From sequence record PQ330092: a stretch of 64,000 nt of DNA; one strand, written 5' to 3'. Made by a program: the position numbers and the translations under genes. The notes below the pieces were generated by a model, which worked only from the letters and a program-made list of their open reading frames with translations, was not told the DNA's origin and did not search any database. Source of the stretch: Escherichia phage JP4. Shown one piece after another: positions 1 through 20,174 of this stretch (position 1 is the stretch's first letter; each line of letters opens with the position of its first letter).

Positions 1-60
1 CTGTATAATATTTTACATAGCACGGGGGAGCGGTTCCCCCTGGTAACTAAGGATAATCAA

Positions 61-360
61 ATGAAAATTGCAATCATCGCCCTGGCTTTATCTGTTTCCT
101 CTTTCGCTGTTAATGCGTCGTTAGATGTGAGTAGTGAAAAATTCATTCAGTGCACTGTTGCGATGACCAATGAAAGTACGGGCGAGATTGTTTTAAAGGA
201 TTTAGAGATCCAGCCACAAGCATTTAAAAACGGGCCGTTCCATGAAGAAGACGAAAACGGTAGCACAACCATTTATTATGATGCAAGTACTAAGCGTGGA
301 TCGGTCACGGTTATGGATACAGAGAAAGTAACGCACACAGGAGTAATTAACTGTTTATAA
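61..360 (+). CDS. Small secreted/periplasmic protein (99 aa) with N-terminal Sec-type signal peptide
   Basis: MKIAIIALALSVSSFAVNA followed by polar mature region; -10 TATAAT at 4-9, 5'UTR hairpin 24-40, SD AAGGA; terminator follows. Confidence 0.75.
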   Translation: MKIAIIALALSVSSFAVNASLDVSSEKFIQCTVAMTNESTGEIVLKDLEIQPQAFKNGPFHEEDENGSTTIYYDASTKRGSVTVMDTEKVTHTGVINCL

Positions 361-377
361 TCTAGTACTGAATCACT

Positions 378-406
378 AGCCCACCTTAAACAGTGGGCTT
401 TTTTGT
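378..406 (+). terminator. Rho-independent terminator (AGCCCAC stem, T-tract)
   Basis: AGCCCACCTTAAACAGTGGGCTTTTTTG; identical 40-bp terminator cassette at 1091-1130. Confidence 0.75.
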
Positions 407-448
407 TTTGTAGTACTGCATACTTTAAAAATAGTTTTAAAAAAGTAG

Positions 449-476
449 TTGACATTACCACAAAAAGGCGTAGAAT
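449..476 (+). promoter_or_regulatory. sigma70-like promoter TTGACA-16-TAGAAT
   Basis: Hexamers read directly; about 115-nt leader before 600..1082. Confidence 0.6.
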
Positions 477-599
477 GTATTACATCAAGACGGGGAGCAC
501 TAAGTAGACCGCCAGTAAGTCGAACGAAAAACTGGACACGTCGATAAAACTTTGATACACTAATAAACGTAAACTAAACTTTAATTGAGGATTTATAAA

Positions 600-1082
600 A
601 TGGCTAATGTAAAATCATTCCTGAAAGCACTGATTTCAAACGATACTGTTATTGCTGCTGAATTGCTGGCTGAACTGGATAACGATACAATGAAAGCGGT
701 ACGCAACAATTTTAACATTGCGTACAGTGAAGCTAAAGAACTGCAAGCCAAAAAGGTAGCAGAACTGGAAGAACAGAAAAAAGCCCGTGAAGCAGAACTA
801 CAAGCAACAATCGAAAGTATCCAGGCGGCAGTAGTTGGATTGGATCTGGAAGTGGTTGTAGAAATGGCACATAAAGCCCTGGCGGTTAAGTACGGTGAAG
901 ATAAGCCGGAATCTAAGCCTAAAAAATGGATTCAGGAACGCGTAGCGGTAGTACTGGACAACGGGGAAGAATATCTTATTCCGGTGCGTGGTAACTGCAT
1001 TGCGGTAGTACTGGACGCTATCAAAGAAAGCGGTATGACTCGCGAGGAATGGATCGAAGCTCATCGCAAAGTTGAAGCATAA
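600..1082 (+). CDS. Hypothetical protein (161 aa), N-terminal coiled-coil-like region
   Basis: Start refined to MANVKS after SD GAGGA; promoter 449-476 with long leader; terminator hairpin 1104-1130. Confidence 0.7.
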   Translation: MANVKSFLKALISNDTVIAAELLAELDNDTMKAVRNNFNIAYSEAKELQAKKVAELEEQKKAREAELQATIESIQAAVVGLDLEVVVEMAHKALAVKYGEDKPESKPKKWIQERVAVVLDNGEEYLIPVRGNCIAVVLDAIKESGMTREEWIEAHRKVEA

Positions 1083-1103
1083 CAATTAAAGTACTGAATC
1101 ACT

Positions 1104-1130
1104 AGCCCACCTTAAACAGTGGGCTTTTTT
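1104..1130 (+). terminator. Rho-independent terminator (copy of 378-406)
   Basis: Same hairpin + T-tract. Confidence 0.75.
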
Positions 1131-1283
1131 GTGTCTGTAGTATTCCAGTCCACCAGCACCGCCTAGAATCGATTCTAACGCATTAAACTGATTATCTGAT
1201 ACATCGCCCTAGCTGGTGGCGTTAAGGTCGTTAGAATGCGATTGAGAGCGTTTAAAGTATTTTGCAAAAAGTAATAAAAAGTA

Positions 1284-1311
1284 CTTGCACGATAAAGAGA
1301 TTAGCGTATAA
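1284..1311 (+). promoter_or_regulatory. sigma70-like promoter (AGTACTTGCA -35 region, TATAAT -10)
   Basis: Class shared by about 20 promoters in the early module. Confidence 0.65.
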
Positions 1312-1367
1312 TGTTTTACATCGAGAGGGGGAAACGGTTCTCCTTCCAAATCAAAGGAATCAAAACA

Positions 1368-1595
1368 ATGGCTATTATCATTACTCGCGTATCTGGTACT
1401 ACTGGCAACGAACAAGTAGTTGCAGTCATTACTAACAAGGCAGGTGCGGAATTGCAAAATGCAATGAATACCTGGGCCGTTAATGAGTTCGGTCAGTGGG
1501 CAAGTGTAGCATACATTGAAACCTATCAAGTGCCGTCGATTAGTTTAACTGATTTGGGCGTTGAGCGTATCCTTTGCCTGGATGAATTAAATTAA
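1368..1595 (+). CDS. Hypothetical small protein (75 aa), MAII-start family
   Basis: Start refined (track ATG lies in -10 box); promoter 1284-1311, hairpin, SD AAAGGAA. Confidence 0.7.
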   Translation: MAIIITRVSGTTGNEQVVAVITNKAGAELQNAMNTWAVNEFGQWASVAYIETYQVPSISLTDLGVERILCLDELN

Positions 1596-17773: not shown

Positions 17774-18004
17774 ATGACTAATATGTATATGACTGAAGTT
17801 AAAACCGTAAAAGATACTACCACGAATAAAACTACTTACTTACAGCGGATCTGTGGTGTATGGCAACGTATCAGCAAATCAAAGTACTTTAAATTAACAT
17901 CATATGCCAATCGTTCGGATTCATTCAGTACTGAAATAAAAGGTAATAAAGTACACCAATACGGCACTTATTATTATTATAGCCTGGACGCGATTGTAGT
18001 ATAA
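17774..18004 (+). CDS. Hypothetical protein (76 aa)
   Basis: Promoter about 17692-17720, hairpin, SD TGGAG. Confidence 0.7.
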   Translation: MTNMYMTEVKTVKDTTTNKTTYLQRICGVWQRISKSKYFKLTSYANRSDSFSTEIKGNKVHQYGTYYYYSLDAIVV

Positions 18005-18289
18005 GTAGTTTACAAATCTTTACAATTGCCAGTATTGACTTATTTTGTCAGTACTGGCATAATGTATTCATTGGCAGATAAGCCGTAGCCCATAGGGTGC
18101 GGAAGTGTATCTATAGAAAAAGTAGTTTAGTACAGTTACAATTGTGCACCCGGTGGGTTAGCTGTTGTCATGGGGTATATTATACCAGTACTGGATAGTG
18201 CTGTCAATACTTTTTTTTTACTATTCAGTACTGAAAACTATTTTTAAAAAGTACTTGCAAACTATGTTTAAAGGCGTATAATGTTTTAC

Positions 18290-18370
18290 ATCAGGACGGG
18301 GAACGAAATAAGTAACTTCCCGTTAAGTAGCCCAGGAGTAAGGCACACGAAAAACTCCCCTGATAAAATA
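18290..18370 (+). ncRNA. Conserved about 80-nt transcribed leader/candidate sRNA (copy of 8056-8131)
   Basis: About 85 percent identical to 8056-8131 with G-U compatible stem change. Confidence 0.3.
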
Positions 18371-18432
18371 GTTTGACAAATGTTTTTAAAAGCGTATAAT
18401 ACTTACATCAACTACTGAATGAGGGTTACAAA

Positions 18433-19044
18433 ATGAAAACTATCACTACTACTACTTTCGTTATGGATTTTTCTGAATTGAACGCAGAACAAAAAACGTC
18501 AGCTATCGAACTGGTTCGGGAACGTGAAAAAAACTCAAACGACAATTATTTTTCTGAAAGTGAAATTGAATACTATAAAGAAACAGTACTACCGGAATAT
18601 GGCATTAATGACGCTGAAATACAATTCAGTGGTTTTTGGTCCCAGGGTGACGGTGCATCAATCAGTACTGACCACGTTGACGCAGTGAAGTTTTTACGCA
18701 AGGTAAGAGCATTAACTAAGTATCGCTCAATCCGTCACCTGCTGAATGAAGATGATTTGGCGATGAGTGTAAAGCGTTCGCACTCCCACTACTCGCATGA
18801 GAATACTGTAAGCGGGTACATTGAATCGGCTTACACTGATTTAACCGCAAAACAAGAAACGTTAGTTAATGAGCTTGAGGAATTACTCACTGAAACTATT
18901 CGTGAATTGTCACGCAAGTTGTACCGTGATTTAGAGAATGCATATGAGGATCAATTCACTACTGAAAACATTACGGCACTGATTGAGGGTAACGAGTATC
19001 AATTCAATGTTATTGATGGCGTAGTGGAATCAATCGAATATTAA
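18433..19044 (+). CDS. Hypothetical acidic protein (203 aa)
   Basis: Tandem promoters and conserved leader element upstream; largest gene in the early module. Confidence 0.7.
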   Translation: MKTITTTTFVMDFSELNAEQKTSAIELVREREKNSNDNYFSESEIEYYKETVLPEYGINDAEIQFSGFWSQGDGASISTDHVDAVKFLRKVRALTKYRSIRHLLNEDDLAMSVKRSHSHYSHENTVSGYIESAYTDLTAKQETLVNELEELLTETIRELSRKLYRDLENAYEDQFTTENITALIEGNEYQFNVIDGVVESIEY

Positions 19045-19136
19045 TTTAAAAAGTACTTGCAAACTAAGTTTAAAAGCGTATAATACTTTATATCGAGAGC
19101 GGGAATAGTTCCCGCTACTAATGAGGAATACTACAA

Positions 19137-19301
19137 ATGAATACTTTTACCTTCGCTCAATTGAACGCCCTGGATGTATTGTCTGATGCTTTGCGGGATG
19201 CAACTGAAAGCGGTTTATTTGACAATGTTGACATTCACCCTGATGTAATTAATAATTTTTGTGATGCTATCGCAGAAGTACTGGAAGATCTAAAAAAATA
19301 A
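19137..19301 (+). CDS. Hypothetical small acidic protein (54 aa), not in ORF track
   Basis: Promoter about 19050-19080, hairpin GCGGGAATAGTTCCCGC, SD TGAGGAA then ATG. Confidence 0.55.
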   Translation: MNTFTFAQLNALDVLSDALRDATESGLFDNVDIHPDVINNFCDAIAEVLEDLKK

Positions 19302-19389
19302 TAGAAAGTACTTGCAATTAGTTTTTAGTACTGTATAATAGTTTACATAGAGGGGAGAAATGGTTCTCCCTGGTAATGAGGAAAATAAA

Positions 19390-19611
19390 ATGGCAAATAT
19401 CACTACTCTTTCCCAACTGGAAGCACTGGTTAAATCTATGCGGGAACATGCCGACAAAATCGGCGTACAAGATCCAGCCGTTTGCTTCTGCGACGAATTG
19501 AATGATGATACCCTGGTAATAGCAGAAGTCCAGGACGTTTCTAACTATTCCTCGCGTTACACTGGCGGCGTAGCAAATAAAGGTGACTTCTGTTTATACC
19601 TTACAAAATAA
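19390..19611 (+). CDS. Hypothetical protein (73 aa)
   Basis: Start refined to MANITT (track ATG is inside the 5'UTR hairpin); terminator 19626-19656 downstream. Confidence 0.65.
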   Translation: MANITTLSQLEALVKSMREHADKIGVQDPAVCFCDELNDDTLVIAEVQDVSNYSSRYTGGVANKGDFCLYLTK

Positions 19612-19625
19612 CAACGCGGGGAGAT

Positions 19626-19656
19626 AATAACTCCCCGTTACTTTTTCAGTACTGAA
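19626..19656 (+). terminator. Rho-independent terminator
   Basis: CGGGGAGATAATAACTCCCCG + TTACTTTTT. Confidence 0.65.
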
Positions 19657-19853
19657 TCATTTAATAGACGGATCTCGGCACCCGGTGGGTTAGTGACTGT
19701 TTCGTCTTGATGTAGTAATTATGCCAGTACTGGATGCACTTGTCAACAACTATTTTTCAAATACTTTTTATTAAAATACTTGCTAATAGTTTTTAAACGC
19801 GTATAATGTTTTGCATAGGGGAGCGGTTCCCCTGGTAACTAAGGAATAAGAAA

Positions 19854-20090
19854 ATGCTTGAACAAATCAAATCAACGTCTGCTAATGTAACGGGAACGGT
19901 ATCACACTTTATTGGTGATGAATCGCGGGGCGTTCCCTATTGTGCTGTACATGTAAACACTGAGGGTAACTACTGGTTTACGGTTTACGGATCATATTCA
20001 TTTGGACGGCCAGGGCATCAAAAAATTCTGGATAAAGTACAGCCAACGGGTAAAAATATCACGGCTGAAATGTTTTATAAAAAATCATAA
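19854..20090 (+). CDS. Hypothetical protein (78 aa)
   Basis: Promoter about 19782-19810, hairpin, SD AAGGAA. Confidence 0.7.
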   Translation: MLEQIKSTSANVTGTVSHFIGDESRGVPYCAVHVNTEGNYWFTVYGSYSFGRPGHQKILDKVQPTGKNITAEMFYKKS

Positions 20091-20174
20091 AGTACTTGAT
20101 AATAGTTTTTAGTACTGTATAATATTTTACATAGCACGGGGGAGCGGTTCCCCCTGGTAACTAAGGATAATCAA

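Follow-up and report, generated by a model that had tools for sequence, protein, structure and literature searches.

The first 20 kb of the record of Escherichia phage JP4 [sequence record: PQ330092] raise the question of why promoters of the sigma70 type should be packed there so densely, and what they serve. We analyzed a window of 64,000 nucleotides (the whole stretch of DNA considered here), and the best explanation of the pattern as a whole is that this segment is probably the immediate-early transcription module of an Asteriusvirus jumbo coliphage.

A terminal repeat permuted by the record

The source genome is that of an Asteriusvirus, a PBECO4/121Q-like jumbo coliphage with a direct terminal repeat (DTR) of 20,114 bp at each end. 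A self-match of the sequence demonstrated that 1-14905 is 100% identical to 20115-35019, and two relatives whose termini are mapped align with their position 1 at 14906; the DTR was positioned by alignment to fEgEco12, whose ends have been mapped via PhageTerm and restriction digests. The window thus comprises the tail of the right DTR, the whole left DTR and then unique DNA. The junction 14905/14906 is a wrap of the record, not natural DNA, 1-20114 is a single DTR copy circularly permuted through this wrap, and every feature given at 1-14905 has a second copy at +20114. Published DTR lengths are 20,993 bp (fEgEco12), 21,525 bp (vB_Ec-M-J) and 20,668 bp (Sharanji).

Number, conservation and design of the promoters

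The first promoter scan (1-20000, loose matches) found 106 matches versus 68.3 ± 8.9 in shuffles, and the excess resides in the strong ones. The second (1-20114) scored matches out of 12 hexamer positions and returned 11 at 12/12, 7 at 11/12 and 21 at 10/12 on the + strand and 1, 4 and 3, respectively, on the - strand, the + strand holding 39 of the 47 matches of at least 10/12; the means of 100 dinucleotide shuffles (both strands) were 0.06, 0.91 and 10.97. Promoter prediction, proposed as a check by the first-pass annotation, therefore yields 12 perfect (TTGACA-N16/17-TATAAT) and 11 near-perfect matches over the 20 kb, where 0.06 and 0.9 are expected. With the count limited to intergenic DNA and TTGCAn also accepted as -35, the + strand holds 44 candidates per repeat unit, or 42 without two weak overlapping ones, and about five weaker promoters (9959, 10235, 12803, ~10530 and ~2314) come on top of the 42. 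The total of ~45-47 per DTR, one every ~430-480 bp, bears out the first-pass estimate of ~45-50 near-perfect promoters in 20 kb, about one per 400 bp. Shine-Dalgarno sequence and ATG follow 20-56 nt downstream of the intergenic promoters.

In comparison with four relatives the mismatch is 1.9% in the -35 and 1.4% in the -10 hexamers, 6.8% in the spacer, 4.5% in other intergenic DNA and 10.4% at third codon positions; the hexamers are 3-5 times better conserved than spacers and flanks. Throughout the genome of a 352-kb relative strong matches number 97 on the + strand versus 11 on the - strand and are densest in the DTR. The same design recurs in the DTRs of Klebsiella phage fENko-Kae01 (38 matches of at least 10/12 on the + strand) and Pectobacterium phage CBB (15 of at least 11/12 and 40 of at least 10/12 on the + strand; 143 copies of AGTACT). 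Strand bias, spacing to Shine-Dalgarno and ATG, selective conservation of the hexamers and placement in the DTR indicate that the sites are very probably real sigma70-type promoters; since many are paralogous copies, duplication has contributed to their number alongside independent selection.

Three designs occur in the DTR (Table 1). Class A has the consensus -35 TTGACA, class B is laid out as AAAAAGTAC-TTGCAn-N16-TATAATGTTTTACAT followed by a 5' hairpin GGGGAGAA/TTCTCCCC, and class C (4-5 copies), the only one to join hairpin with promoter, carries its -35 within the stem of a stem-loop. A second -35 type had been described earlier as CTTGCA with a 17-bp spacer; the type exists, but TTGCA(A/T/C) with a spacer of 16 bp and AAAAAGTAC in front describes it better. 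TGn is found in 11 of the 42 promoters. The reported A/T-rich UP-like tracts were recovered: GAAAACTATTTTTAAAAAG lies at 3982, 7999 (1 mismatch) and 18233, and A+T makes up 76% (A 48%) of the 30 nt preceding the -35, versus 62% (A 34%) in the whole repeat.

Table 1 Features of the terminal repeat and its promoters (window coordinates)
Position	Strand	Feature	Details
1..14905	.	right-hand DTR, last 14,905 bp	identical to 20115-35019
14906..35019	.	left DTR, complete, 20,114 bp	self-match and relatives' alignment
1..20114	.	AGTACT, 133 copies per repeat unit	81 intergenic, 52 in ORFs
378..399	+	terminator-like hairpin	T run
449..476	+	promoter, class A	TTGACA-16-TAGAAT
1104-1125	+	terminator-like hairpin	
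1285..1312	+	promoter, class B	AGTAC-TTGCAC-16-TATAAT
1604..1631	+	promoter, class B	TTGCAA-16-TATAAT; 5'UTR hairpin 1644-1663
1913..1941	+	promoter, class A	TTGACA-17-TGgCATAAT; in inverted repeat 1906-1933
3188..3215	+	promoter, class B	
3417..3444	+	promoter, class B	hairpin 3457-3476
3882..3910	+	promoter, class C	-35 TTGACT in 12-bp stem-loop 3875-3902, then TGcTATTAT; composite of terminator-like hairpin and promoter
3938..3948	+	conserved motif CCA(C/T)AGGGTGC	~28 nt into class C / TGn transcripts; further copies at 5596, 7953, 11227, 13480, 18090
4004..4031	+	promoter, class B	UP-like tract 3982-4000
4439..4466	+	promoter, class A	perfect TTGACA-16-TATAAT; hairpin 4479-4498
4753..4781	+	promoter, class A	TTGACA-17-CATAAT; in inverted repeat 4746-4773
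5015..5042	+	promoter, class A	perfect; in inverted repeat 5008-5035
5538..5566	+	promoter, class A	TTGACA-17-TGgCATAAT; then CCATAGGGTGC motif at 5596
5654..5681	+	promoter	TTGATC-16-TATAAT
5865..6122	+	gene with DksA/TraR C4 zinc finger	Pfam PF01258, E = 3e-9; phrog_54
6130..6157	+	promoter, class A	perfect
6187..6543	+	GNAT acetyltransferase gene	Pfam scan
6547..6575	+	weak promoter	TTGCAT-17-TATAGT
7168..7195	+	promoter, class A	perfect; hairpin 7208-7227
7902..7930	+	promoter, class C	in stem-loop 7895-7922
8022..8049	+	promoter, class B	TTGCAT-16-TATAAT
8138..8166	+	promoter, class A	TTGACA-17-TAAAAT
8409..8436	+	promoter, class A	perfect
8748..8775	+	promoter, class A	perfect
9178..9206	+	promoter, class A	perfect, 17-bp spacer
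9669-9687	+	terminator-like hairpin	
9708..9962	+	gene with ParE-like toxin domain	PF24732, E = 6e-11
9959..9987	+	weaker promoter	TTGACA-17-TACTAT
10235..10263	+	weaker promoter	TTGACA-17-TACTAT
10567..11151	+	kinase-like gene	weak Pfam match, under curated cut-off; Ser/Thr kinase in relatives' annotation
11171..11199	+	promoter, class C	in stem-loop 11164-11191
11294..11321	+	promoter, class B	
11599..11626	+	promoter, class A	perfect
12148..12175	+	promoter, class B	
12483..12510	+	promoter, class B	
12803..12831	+	promoter, probably weak or dead	TTGACA-17-TGTAAT; in inverted repeat 12795-12822
13123..13150	+	promoter, class A	perfect
13429..13457	+	promoter, class C	in stem-loop 13422-13449
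13570..13598	+	promoter, class A	TTGACA-17-TGcGATAAT
13992..14019	+	promoter, class B	
15271..15298	+	promoter	perfect; 366 bp from physical left end; no ORF found over 1.3 kb downstream
16158-16177	+	terminator-like hairpin	
16554..16581	+	promoter, class B	precedes first DTR gene
17014..17041	+	promoter, class B	
17694..17721	+	promoter, class B	
18035..18063	+	promoter	TTGACT-17-TGgCATAAT; then CCATAGGGTGC motif at 18090
18255..18282	+	promoter, class B	UP-like tract 18233-18251
18373..18400	+	promoter, class A	perfect
19057..19084	+	promoter, class B	
19312..19339	+	promoter, class B	
19616-19638	+	terminator-like hairpin	
19780..19807	+	promoter	TTGCTA-16-TATAAT
20096..20123	+	promoter	AGTAC-TTGATA-16-TATAAT

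The word AGTACT is the most frequent hexamer of the DTR and is present in 34 of the 42 promoters at two fixed positions, either overlapping the -35 by its last base, the initial T of that hexamer, or adjoining the -10. Inside genes it is conserved more than coding demands, the DTRs of the Klebsiella and Pectobacterium relatives are enriched in it to the same degree, and its repetition seems not to have been described before. The inverted repeat AGTACTA-N14-TAGTACT occurs at 1906, 4746, 5008 and 12795 (expected 0.05), so that the four sites singled out earlier as an operator subclass do exist; each arm, however, is a copy of this abundant word, and these promoters form no special class. The fourth of them, at 12803, is present, but its -10 (TGTAAT) is without the -11 A and it is probably weak.

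Class B invites a different explanation, in which class A would be served by host sigma70 and class B slightly later by a factor of the phage itself, be it the RpoD-like sigma or an activator that binds AGTACT, as in T4, whose middle promoters retain the -10 and swap the -35 for an activator box. The class B -35 is poor (only 3-4 of 6 consensus matches) and overlapped by AGTACT, its AGTAC flank and start region are invariant, and the 352-kb relative has its 18 class B promoters and 22 copies of the TATAATnnTTTACAT start motif exclusively in the DTR, whereas class A is also found outside it; the phage group is moreover reported to encode an RpoD-like sigma factor, while a phage RNA polymerase goes unmentioned. 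Nevertheless, two such temporal classes appear unlikely: a -35 TTG with a perfect -10 and an upstream A-tract normally suffices for sigma70, the very first DTR gene has a class B promoter, no activator is known, and a phage sigma or activator must first be made from other promoters.

Transcripts, genes and cassette exchange

The DTR contains 49 called genes, all tiny, about 35 of which have their own promoter, the remainder lying in coupled groups of 2-4. Only ~9 terminator-like hairpins were found on the + strand, which implies nested transcripts that read through; the earlier view of each small gene as its own unit holds for initiation, but not for the transcript. About half of the predicted mRNAs open with a conserved G/C hairpin of 6-9 bp (GGGGAGAA-loop-TTCTCCCC) that lies 5-9 nt from the predicted start of transcription. 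Of 23 hairpins, 21 have stems of 6-9 bp; their 5' arms come in 15 different versions, with paired changes. Folding of the leaders gave z < -2 in 21 of 42. The hairpin has no U run and would most likely act as a 5' stabilizer or a regulator-binding element, not as a terminator. A Pfam scan of 40 of the 49 called proteins gave a domain hint in only four, so it is by analogy that we infer a role in host takeover for these mostly uncharacterised products.

The promoter cassettes form repeat families of 65-235 bp with 76-94% identity. Synteny breakpoints fall within -100..+15 of a start codon in 27 of 34 cases versus 10.4 ± 2.7 by chance, a clustering matched in 0 of 20,000 simulations; the significant tests extend the cassette 15 nt into the ORF, and a stricter first test (strictly intergenic versus ORF) gave 19/64, p = 0.9, not significant. 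Several indels are bordered by 20-108 bp direct repeats of cassette. As far as sequence comparison can tell, breakpoints of gene gain and loss thus fall in the promoter cassettes, like the promoter-early stem-loop (PeSL) elements of T4-like phages. Repeat families, clustered breakpoints and cassette-bordered indels would also suit cassettes that are mainly PeSL-like recombination linkers, abundant through duplication and shuffling and with many copies adding little transcription, a mechanism documented for RB49/phi1 (PMC2839356, PMC4122927). We find this improbable as the main role, because the hexamers are far better conserved than the spacer between them, as promoter function predicts and homology patches do not; promoter and linker roles can coexist. 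An origin by chance or from the A+T-rich composition, suggested by the frequency of loose matches in shuffles (68 versus 106 observed), is refuted by the shuffle counts and the hexamer conservation against relatives, and with perfect matches 200-fold above expectation, intergenic placement, an 8:1 strand bias and selective conservation its probability is negligible.

The immediate-early module that we favor would operate through ~45 co-oriented promoters, each with an A-rich UP-like tract, a -35, a 16-17 bp spacer (TGn in a quarter) and a consensus -10, which would recruit the unmodified E. coli sigma70 holoenzyme as soon as one end of the genome has entered the cell; since the repeat stands at both ends, whichever enters first would bring the module. 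Of the ~49 small genes, about 35 would be started from their own promoter, 20-56 nt before a strong ribosome-binding site, few terminators would leave nested transcripts reading rightward, and the 5' hairpin on about half of the mRNAs may stabilize them or bind a regulator. The promoter/5'UTR cassettes could double as patches of homology that, as in PeSL, let single-gene cassettes be gained, lost and exchanged. Two counterpoints to the host sigma70 reading are that the family's own RpoD-like sigma could serve some promoters and that the spacer of most promoters, 16 bp, is one short of the optimum. Early host takeover is a plausible function, as DTR genes of the related phage PA5oct are transcribed early by the host polymerase.

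Relation to known early regions

The long terminal repeat of T5 (pre-early genes) and the terminal redundancy of SPO1 (host-takeover module) are packed with small host-shutoff genes that are expressed first from strong host-polymerase promoters (compare PMC7472727). Both families are unrelated to the present phage, T5 DNA transfer is a two-step process, and promoter density is probably lower in both than in the DTR.

For CBB, of the same phage group, RpoD-like promoters with UP-like elements have also been predicted (Buttimer 2017 PMC5259590), 18 genome-wide and 3 in the terminal repeat, versus 40 of at least 10/12 in the present scan of the repeat. The jumbo Pseudomonas phage PA5oct, of the same wider group, likewise has a long DTR (39 kb), whose 105 small genes show high transcription by 5 min, and TTGAC/TATAATA promoters at mapped starts, and rifampicin blocks its progeny production (Lood 2020 PMC7318152). 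Compared by its published description, it has 32 promoters reported genome-wide versus ~45 in 20 kb here, and promoter classes, 5' hairpins and AGTACT are undescribed in that paper (PMC7318152).

The early 'uber' promoters of T4 (UP/-35/TGn/-10; Hinton 2010 PMC2988021) are used right after infection and outcompete host promoters (PMC2988021). They resemble the DTR promoters in their strong sigma70 type, UP-like tracts, extra conserved positions and many small early genes; the T4 -35 consensus, however, differs, TGn is present in only a minority of DTR promoters, the T4 genome is circularly permuted without a fixed terminal repeat, and there is no evidence of an Alt-like injected modifier in the DTR phage. 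In layout the DTR also resembles the PeSL cassettes of the T4-like RB49/phi1, PST and nt-1 (Arbiol 2010 PMC2839356; Comeau 2014 PMC4122927), which share near-perfect TTGACA/TATAAT, an A/T-rich upstream tract, a GGGG...CCCC stem-loop, Shine-Dalgarno and ATG, repetition among small ORFan genes in plastic regions, and indel or replacement breakpoints within cassettes. In PeSL the stem-loop precedes the promoter and ends the transcript before it, whereas in the DTR it follows the promoter, in the 5'UTR; class C combines hairpin and promoter, but, unlike PeSL, with the -35 inside the stem. Most DTR spacers are 16 bp long, versus 17 in PeSL, and the DTR array, unlike PeSL, is restricted to the terminal repeat and has AGTACT embedded at fixed positions. 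The terminal repeat thus follows a known style of phage early region, here with its own promoter design and the AGTACT word.

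Location of the promoter array in the terminal repeat

The promoters that the first-pass annotation placed in 1-20114 are situated inside a fixed direct terminal repeat (DTR), as seen from the match of the window to itself and from the mapped termini of relatives. Two of its segments, 1-14905 and 20115-35019, are identical, and position 1 of fEgEco12 as well as that of vB_Ec-M-J aligns to 14906; the termini of fEgEco12 are known from PhageTerm mapping, with confirmation by restriction digestion, and the vB_Ec-M-J record annotates a direct terminal repeat of 21,525 bp. The window therefore comprises the final 14,905 bp of the right DTR, the whole left DTR and unique DNA. 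The junction of the two DTR parts results from the wrapping of a linear record and does not exist in natural DNA, and the interval 1-20114 corresponds to exactly one repeat unit in permuted order. Asteriusvirus jumbo phages of E. coli, among them PBECO4, 121Q, phAPEC6, fEgEco12, vB_Ec-M-J and E9.1, match the window, both within and beyond its first 20 kb, at 92-97% identity.

The physical left genome end carries several elements (table) that could be packaging, replication or entry signals. To the right of the repeat the architecture shifts abruptly, with 4 kb devoid of AGTACT and a drop of G+C content from 0.39 to 0.31-0.35.

Features of the window, with positions in window coordinates
Feature	Position (nt)	Strand	Description
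Tail of right DTR copy	1-14905		
Record wrap	14905/14906		
Left DTR copy	14906-35019		20,114 bp
Left genome end	14906-16636		first ~1.7 kb without convincing ORF
Perfect promoter near left end	15271-15298		1.3 kb to next gene
Short-repeat array	15684-15811		~14 eight-base units (A/G)GA(C/T)GGCT
Two identical 40-bp repeats	16430, 16483		
Strong leftward promoters	15937, 16277, 18207, 19746	-	first 5 kb of the repeat
Leftward promoter at 18207	18207-18179	-	perfect TTGACA-17-TATAAT with TG
(G/A)CCCA(C/T)AGGGTGC, left copy	18090, 24052, 25710, 28067, 31341, 33594		
(G/A)CCCA(C/T)AGGGTGC, right copy	3938, 5596, 7953, 11227, 13480		
Unique DNA	35020-64000		AGTACA the commonest hexamer
Tight gene array	35117-40000		overlapping genes of 65-85 aa, almost no promoters
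Segment without AGTACT and AGTACA	36-40 kb		
Segment with AGTACT fully replaced by AGTACA	42.8-50.7 kb		
Diverged tandem paralogues in unique DNA	51944-54186		466 bp (73% identity) and segments of 110-120 bp (83-89%); common recurring coding motif ...GAAGAGTA(C/T)T(A/T)CCA...

Predicted host-type promoters of three designs

In 20 kb the sequence TTGACA-N16/17-TATAAT occurs 12 times in perfect form and 11 times with 11/12 matches, against 0.06 and 0.9 expected, and a looser tool scan returned 106 sigma70-like matches vs 68 ± 9 in shuffled sequences. Sites with at least 10/12 matches number 39 on the + strand vs 8 on the - strand, and one perfect match is found in the 29 kb of unique DNA. When the recurrent -35 variant TTGCAn is allowed, each repeat contains 42 intergenic + strand sites, to which about five weaker ones may be added, giving one promoter per 430-480 bp; the high density of consensus sigma70 promoters claimed by the first-pass annotation, and the rate it had estimated, are thus borne out. 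The sites lie between small genes of rightward orientation, about 49 in number, of which some 35 have a co-oriented promoter 20-56 nt upstream of a Shine-Dalgarno sequence and ATG. A+T makes up 76% (A alone 48%) of the 30 nt preceding the -35 box vs 62% A+T overall, with the consensus AAAAAG/AAAaA. The UP-like tract is located where it had been proposed; an extended -10 (TGn) is present in 11 of the 42 promoters.

Comparison with four relatives revealed mismatches at 1.9% of aligned positions in the -35 and 1.4% in the -10 hexamers, vs 6.8% in the spacer, 4.5% in other intergenic DNA and 10.4% at third codon positions. The hexamers are under purifying selection relative to their flanks, and their conservation without that of the spacer is the pattern predicted by promoter function. 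The finding is real, and its original interpretation largely reasonable: judged by sequence, the array consists of dense, conserved, putative host-type early promoters throughout the terminal repeat of a jumbo coliphage.

Three promoter designs can be distinguished. Class A (17 sites) combines TTGACA, a spacer of 16 or 17 bp and TATAAT or TGnCATAAT, with AGTACT usually abutting the -10. Class B (16 sites) has the form AAAAAGTAC-TTGCA(A/T/C)-N16-TATAAT-GTTTTACAT, in which a poor -35 is accompanied by nearly invariant flanks. Class C (4-5 sites) has its -35 within a 12-bp stem-loop, AAAGGGATTGACTCCGGTCAGTCCCTTT, followed by GC-TATTAT, and since this stem-loop comes directly after a stop codon it is regarded as a composite of terminator-like hairpin and promoter. 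In the complete 352-kb genome of the relative EC22.5-2, consensus TTGACA promoters number 12 in the repeat and 20 elsewhere, the latter in a cluster at 281-320 kb. The repeat alone contains class B promoters (18) and the TATAATnnTTTACAT start motif (22 copies), and the same confinement holds for the class C elements and, on the + strand, for the hairpin pattern. Exact class B matches in IMG/VR came only from contigs of 348-366 kb and one contig of 109 kb. The same designs recur in the DTRs of Klebsiella phage fENko-Kae01 and Pectobacterium phage CBB, both of other genera.

Four strong leftward promoters oppose the otherwise uniform rightward transcription of the repeat, and antisense or terminus-directed transcripts are possible products.

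The AGTACT word

The hexamer AGTACT occurs 292 times in the window, vs 18 ± 4.5 expected, and with 133 copies is the commonest hexamer of one repeat unit. Its abundance reaches 2.6 per kb genome-wide and 6.7 per kb in the repeat of EC22.5-2, as compared to 0.22 per kb in a 50-kb sample of E. coli K-12, and the repeats of the Klebsiella and Pectobacterium phages contain 122 and 143 copies. In promoters the word takes two fixed places: its final base is the first T of the -35 in 16 promoters, and in 18 it abuts the -10; at least one copy is found in 34 of 42. Per repeat, 81 copies are intergenic and 52 lie in ORFs; the latter are conserved beyond coding need, as third-position mismatch is 2.4% vs 10.6% and retention 93% vs 77 ± 5% for control hexamers. 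The inverted repeat that the first-pass annotation considered a candidate operator of one promoter subclass is present at all four sites assigned to it, but it is not specific to that subset, as its arms are the same ubiquitous word.

Several explanations of the word were rejected. Amino-acid usage fails because ORF copies occur in all three frames. The SlmA-binding site, with the consensus GTGAGTACTCAC, requires G at -1 and C at +1, which are the bases avoided around AGTACT (G at -1 in 4/133 and C at +1 in 10/133 copies, with C favoured at -1 and G at +1). The LexA box has the consensus CTGT-N8-ACAG; both of its half-site pentamers lie within CAGTACTG, but the spacing, judged by eye, does not fit. 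Helical phasing was also looked for, and no periodicity was detected except the 20-24 bp promoter spacing.

The simplest idea is that a dimeric DNA-binding regulator or a modification enzyme would read AGTACT. In an extended and rather doubtful version, the word (best form CAGTACTG) would be a clade-wide cis-acting signal for one conserved factor of either kind, its placement at -36/-16 could switch the whole early module at once, and its density, 12-30 times that of the 50-kb E. coli sample, might mark phage DNA vs host DNA. The abundance of the word, its placement in promoters, its conservation inside genes and its occurrence in phages of three host genera point to a candidate factor reading the whole phage genome. 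A search of the open-access literature found no description of the enrichment.

The unique DNA contains 77 copies of the related AGTACA vs 21 of its complement, in all three frames; this word is a polar, region-specific variant of AGTACT.

Leaders, proposed early function and possible cassette exchange

A G/C hairpin of 6-9 bp, GGGGAGAA-loop-TTCTCCCC, begins 11-15 nt past the -10 in 21 of the 23 leaders examined; a folding z-score below -2 is reached by half of all leaders. The hairpins have 15 different 5′ arms, with pairing maintained through changes on both sides, as assessed by a loop-anchored count of pairs, the MAFFT alignment having put the stems out of register for RNAalifold. They are not intrinsic terminators, since they are followed by ACTA... 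and not by a U run. Terminators of the hairpin-plus-T-run type number only about five on the + strand, with class C hairpins adding four, so that most genes have their own start without their own stop, and transcripts must be nested and rightward. The suggestion that each small gene forms its own unit accordingly holds for transcription starts but not for stops.

Class C and TGn promoters share an invariant motif, (G/A)CCCA(C/T)AGGGTGC, about 28 nt into their transcripts, with no ORF close by; the repeats of the Klebsiella and Pectobacterium phages have four and six copies, and in EC22.5-2 it is restricted to the repeat. Ten copies of its core CCAYAGGGTGC analyzed by RNAalifold gave only a 4-bp mini-stem with no compensatory changes or covarying fold; the conservation is thus one of sequence rather than of a demonstrated RNA fold, and the motif may denote either a nut-like site or a short non-coding RNA. 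Rfam searches of 1-20200 (E ≤ 1) yielded only three chance-level matches (mir-1000 twice and a Trp leader), all far below gathering scores, and ARAGORN predicted no tRNA or tmRNA.

An early host-takeover role of the DTR is plausible, because the predicted promoters are of host type, publications on the group describe a sigma factor of the phage and make no mention of a phage polymerase, and comparable arrangements exist in other phages. T5 and SPO1 have the same early arrangement in their terminal repeats. T4 early promoters are arranged likewise (Hinton 2010 PMC2988021), and in PA5oct, a related jumbo Pseudomonas phage, strong transcription of the genes in the 39-kb repeat was seen at 5 min, and rifampicin blocks progeny production (Lood 2020 PMC7318152). 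Among the 49 genes called in the DTR, Pfam scans of 40 proteins gave only four domain matches (a DksA/TraR zinc finger, a GNAT acetyltransferase, a ParE-like toxin domain and a weak kinase match), and a PHROGs scan of ten proteins added only function-unassigned families; most DTR genes are thus ORFans.

Many isolates of Asteriusvirus and related 350-kb phages are being obtained for therapy, and the papers on them leave the start of infection undescribed. No relevant work on Asteriusvirus promoters or transcriptomes was found in the open-access literature, and the genome papers examined for the genus and its relatives do not mention promoters or give only three for the repeat. The latter is the case for CBB, with three RpoD-like promoters in its repeat (KU574722, 355924-378379; Buttimer 2017 PMC5259590); the count appears to be a large underestimate, since a plain consensus scan of this repeat gives 15 + strand sites at ≥11/12 and 40 at ≥10/12. 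A map of some 45 promoters of three designs, one of them DTR-only, provides an experimental handle on the first minutes of jumbo-phage infection, and the DTR offers a set of compact E. coli promoters, predicted to be very strong, with their 5′ leaders.

Between the repeat of the window and those of relatives, single genes have been inserted, lost or replaced. Distinct alignment breakpoints fell within -100 to +15 of a start codon in 27 of 34 cases, vs 10.4 ± 2.7 for random positions (0/20,000 simulations), in tests that count the first 15 nucleotides of an ORF as cassette, by a definition chosen after the data had been seen; several indels are flanked by direct repeats of 20-108 bp of the promoter-leader cassette. 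A strict intergenic-versus-ORF test, in which BLAST segments reach by a few bases into the conserved beginning of the following gene, was not significant (19/64, p = 0.9), and the clustering of breakpoints in promoter-leader cassettes is therefore suggestive rather than proven. Such a cassette structure would explain the gene-by-gene differences between repeats of close relatives.

The arrangement resembles the promoter-early stem-loop (PeSL) cassettes of T4-like phages, in which a strong sigma70 promoter and an adjacent G/C stem-loop, represented here by the 21 leader hairpins, stand between small ORFan genes and breakpoints fall within cassettes (Arbiol 2010 PMC2839356; Comeau 2014 PMC4122927). 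However, the PeSL stem-loop is a terminator upstream of the promoter, whereas the hairpin described here lies downstream of the -10 and has no U run; only the class C hairpins follow a stop codon, and they overlap the -35. In kind, such an array has precedents in the early promoters of T4, in PeSL cassettes and in the PA5oct repeat with its early transcription. We found no precedent for a leader hairpin placed downstream of the promoter, a class B design confined to the repeat, a -35 embedded in a hairpin or, most notably, AGTACT.
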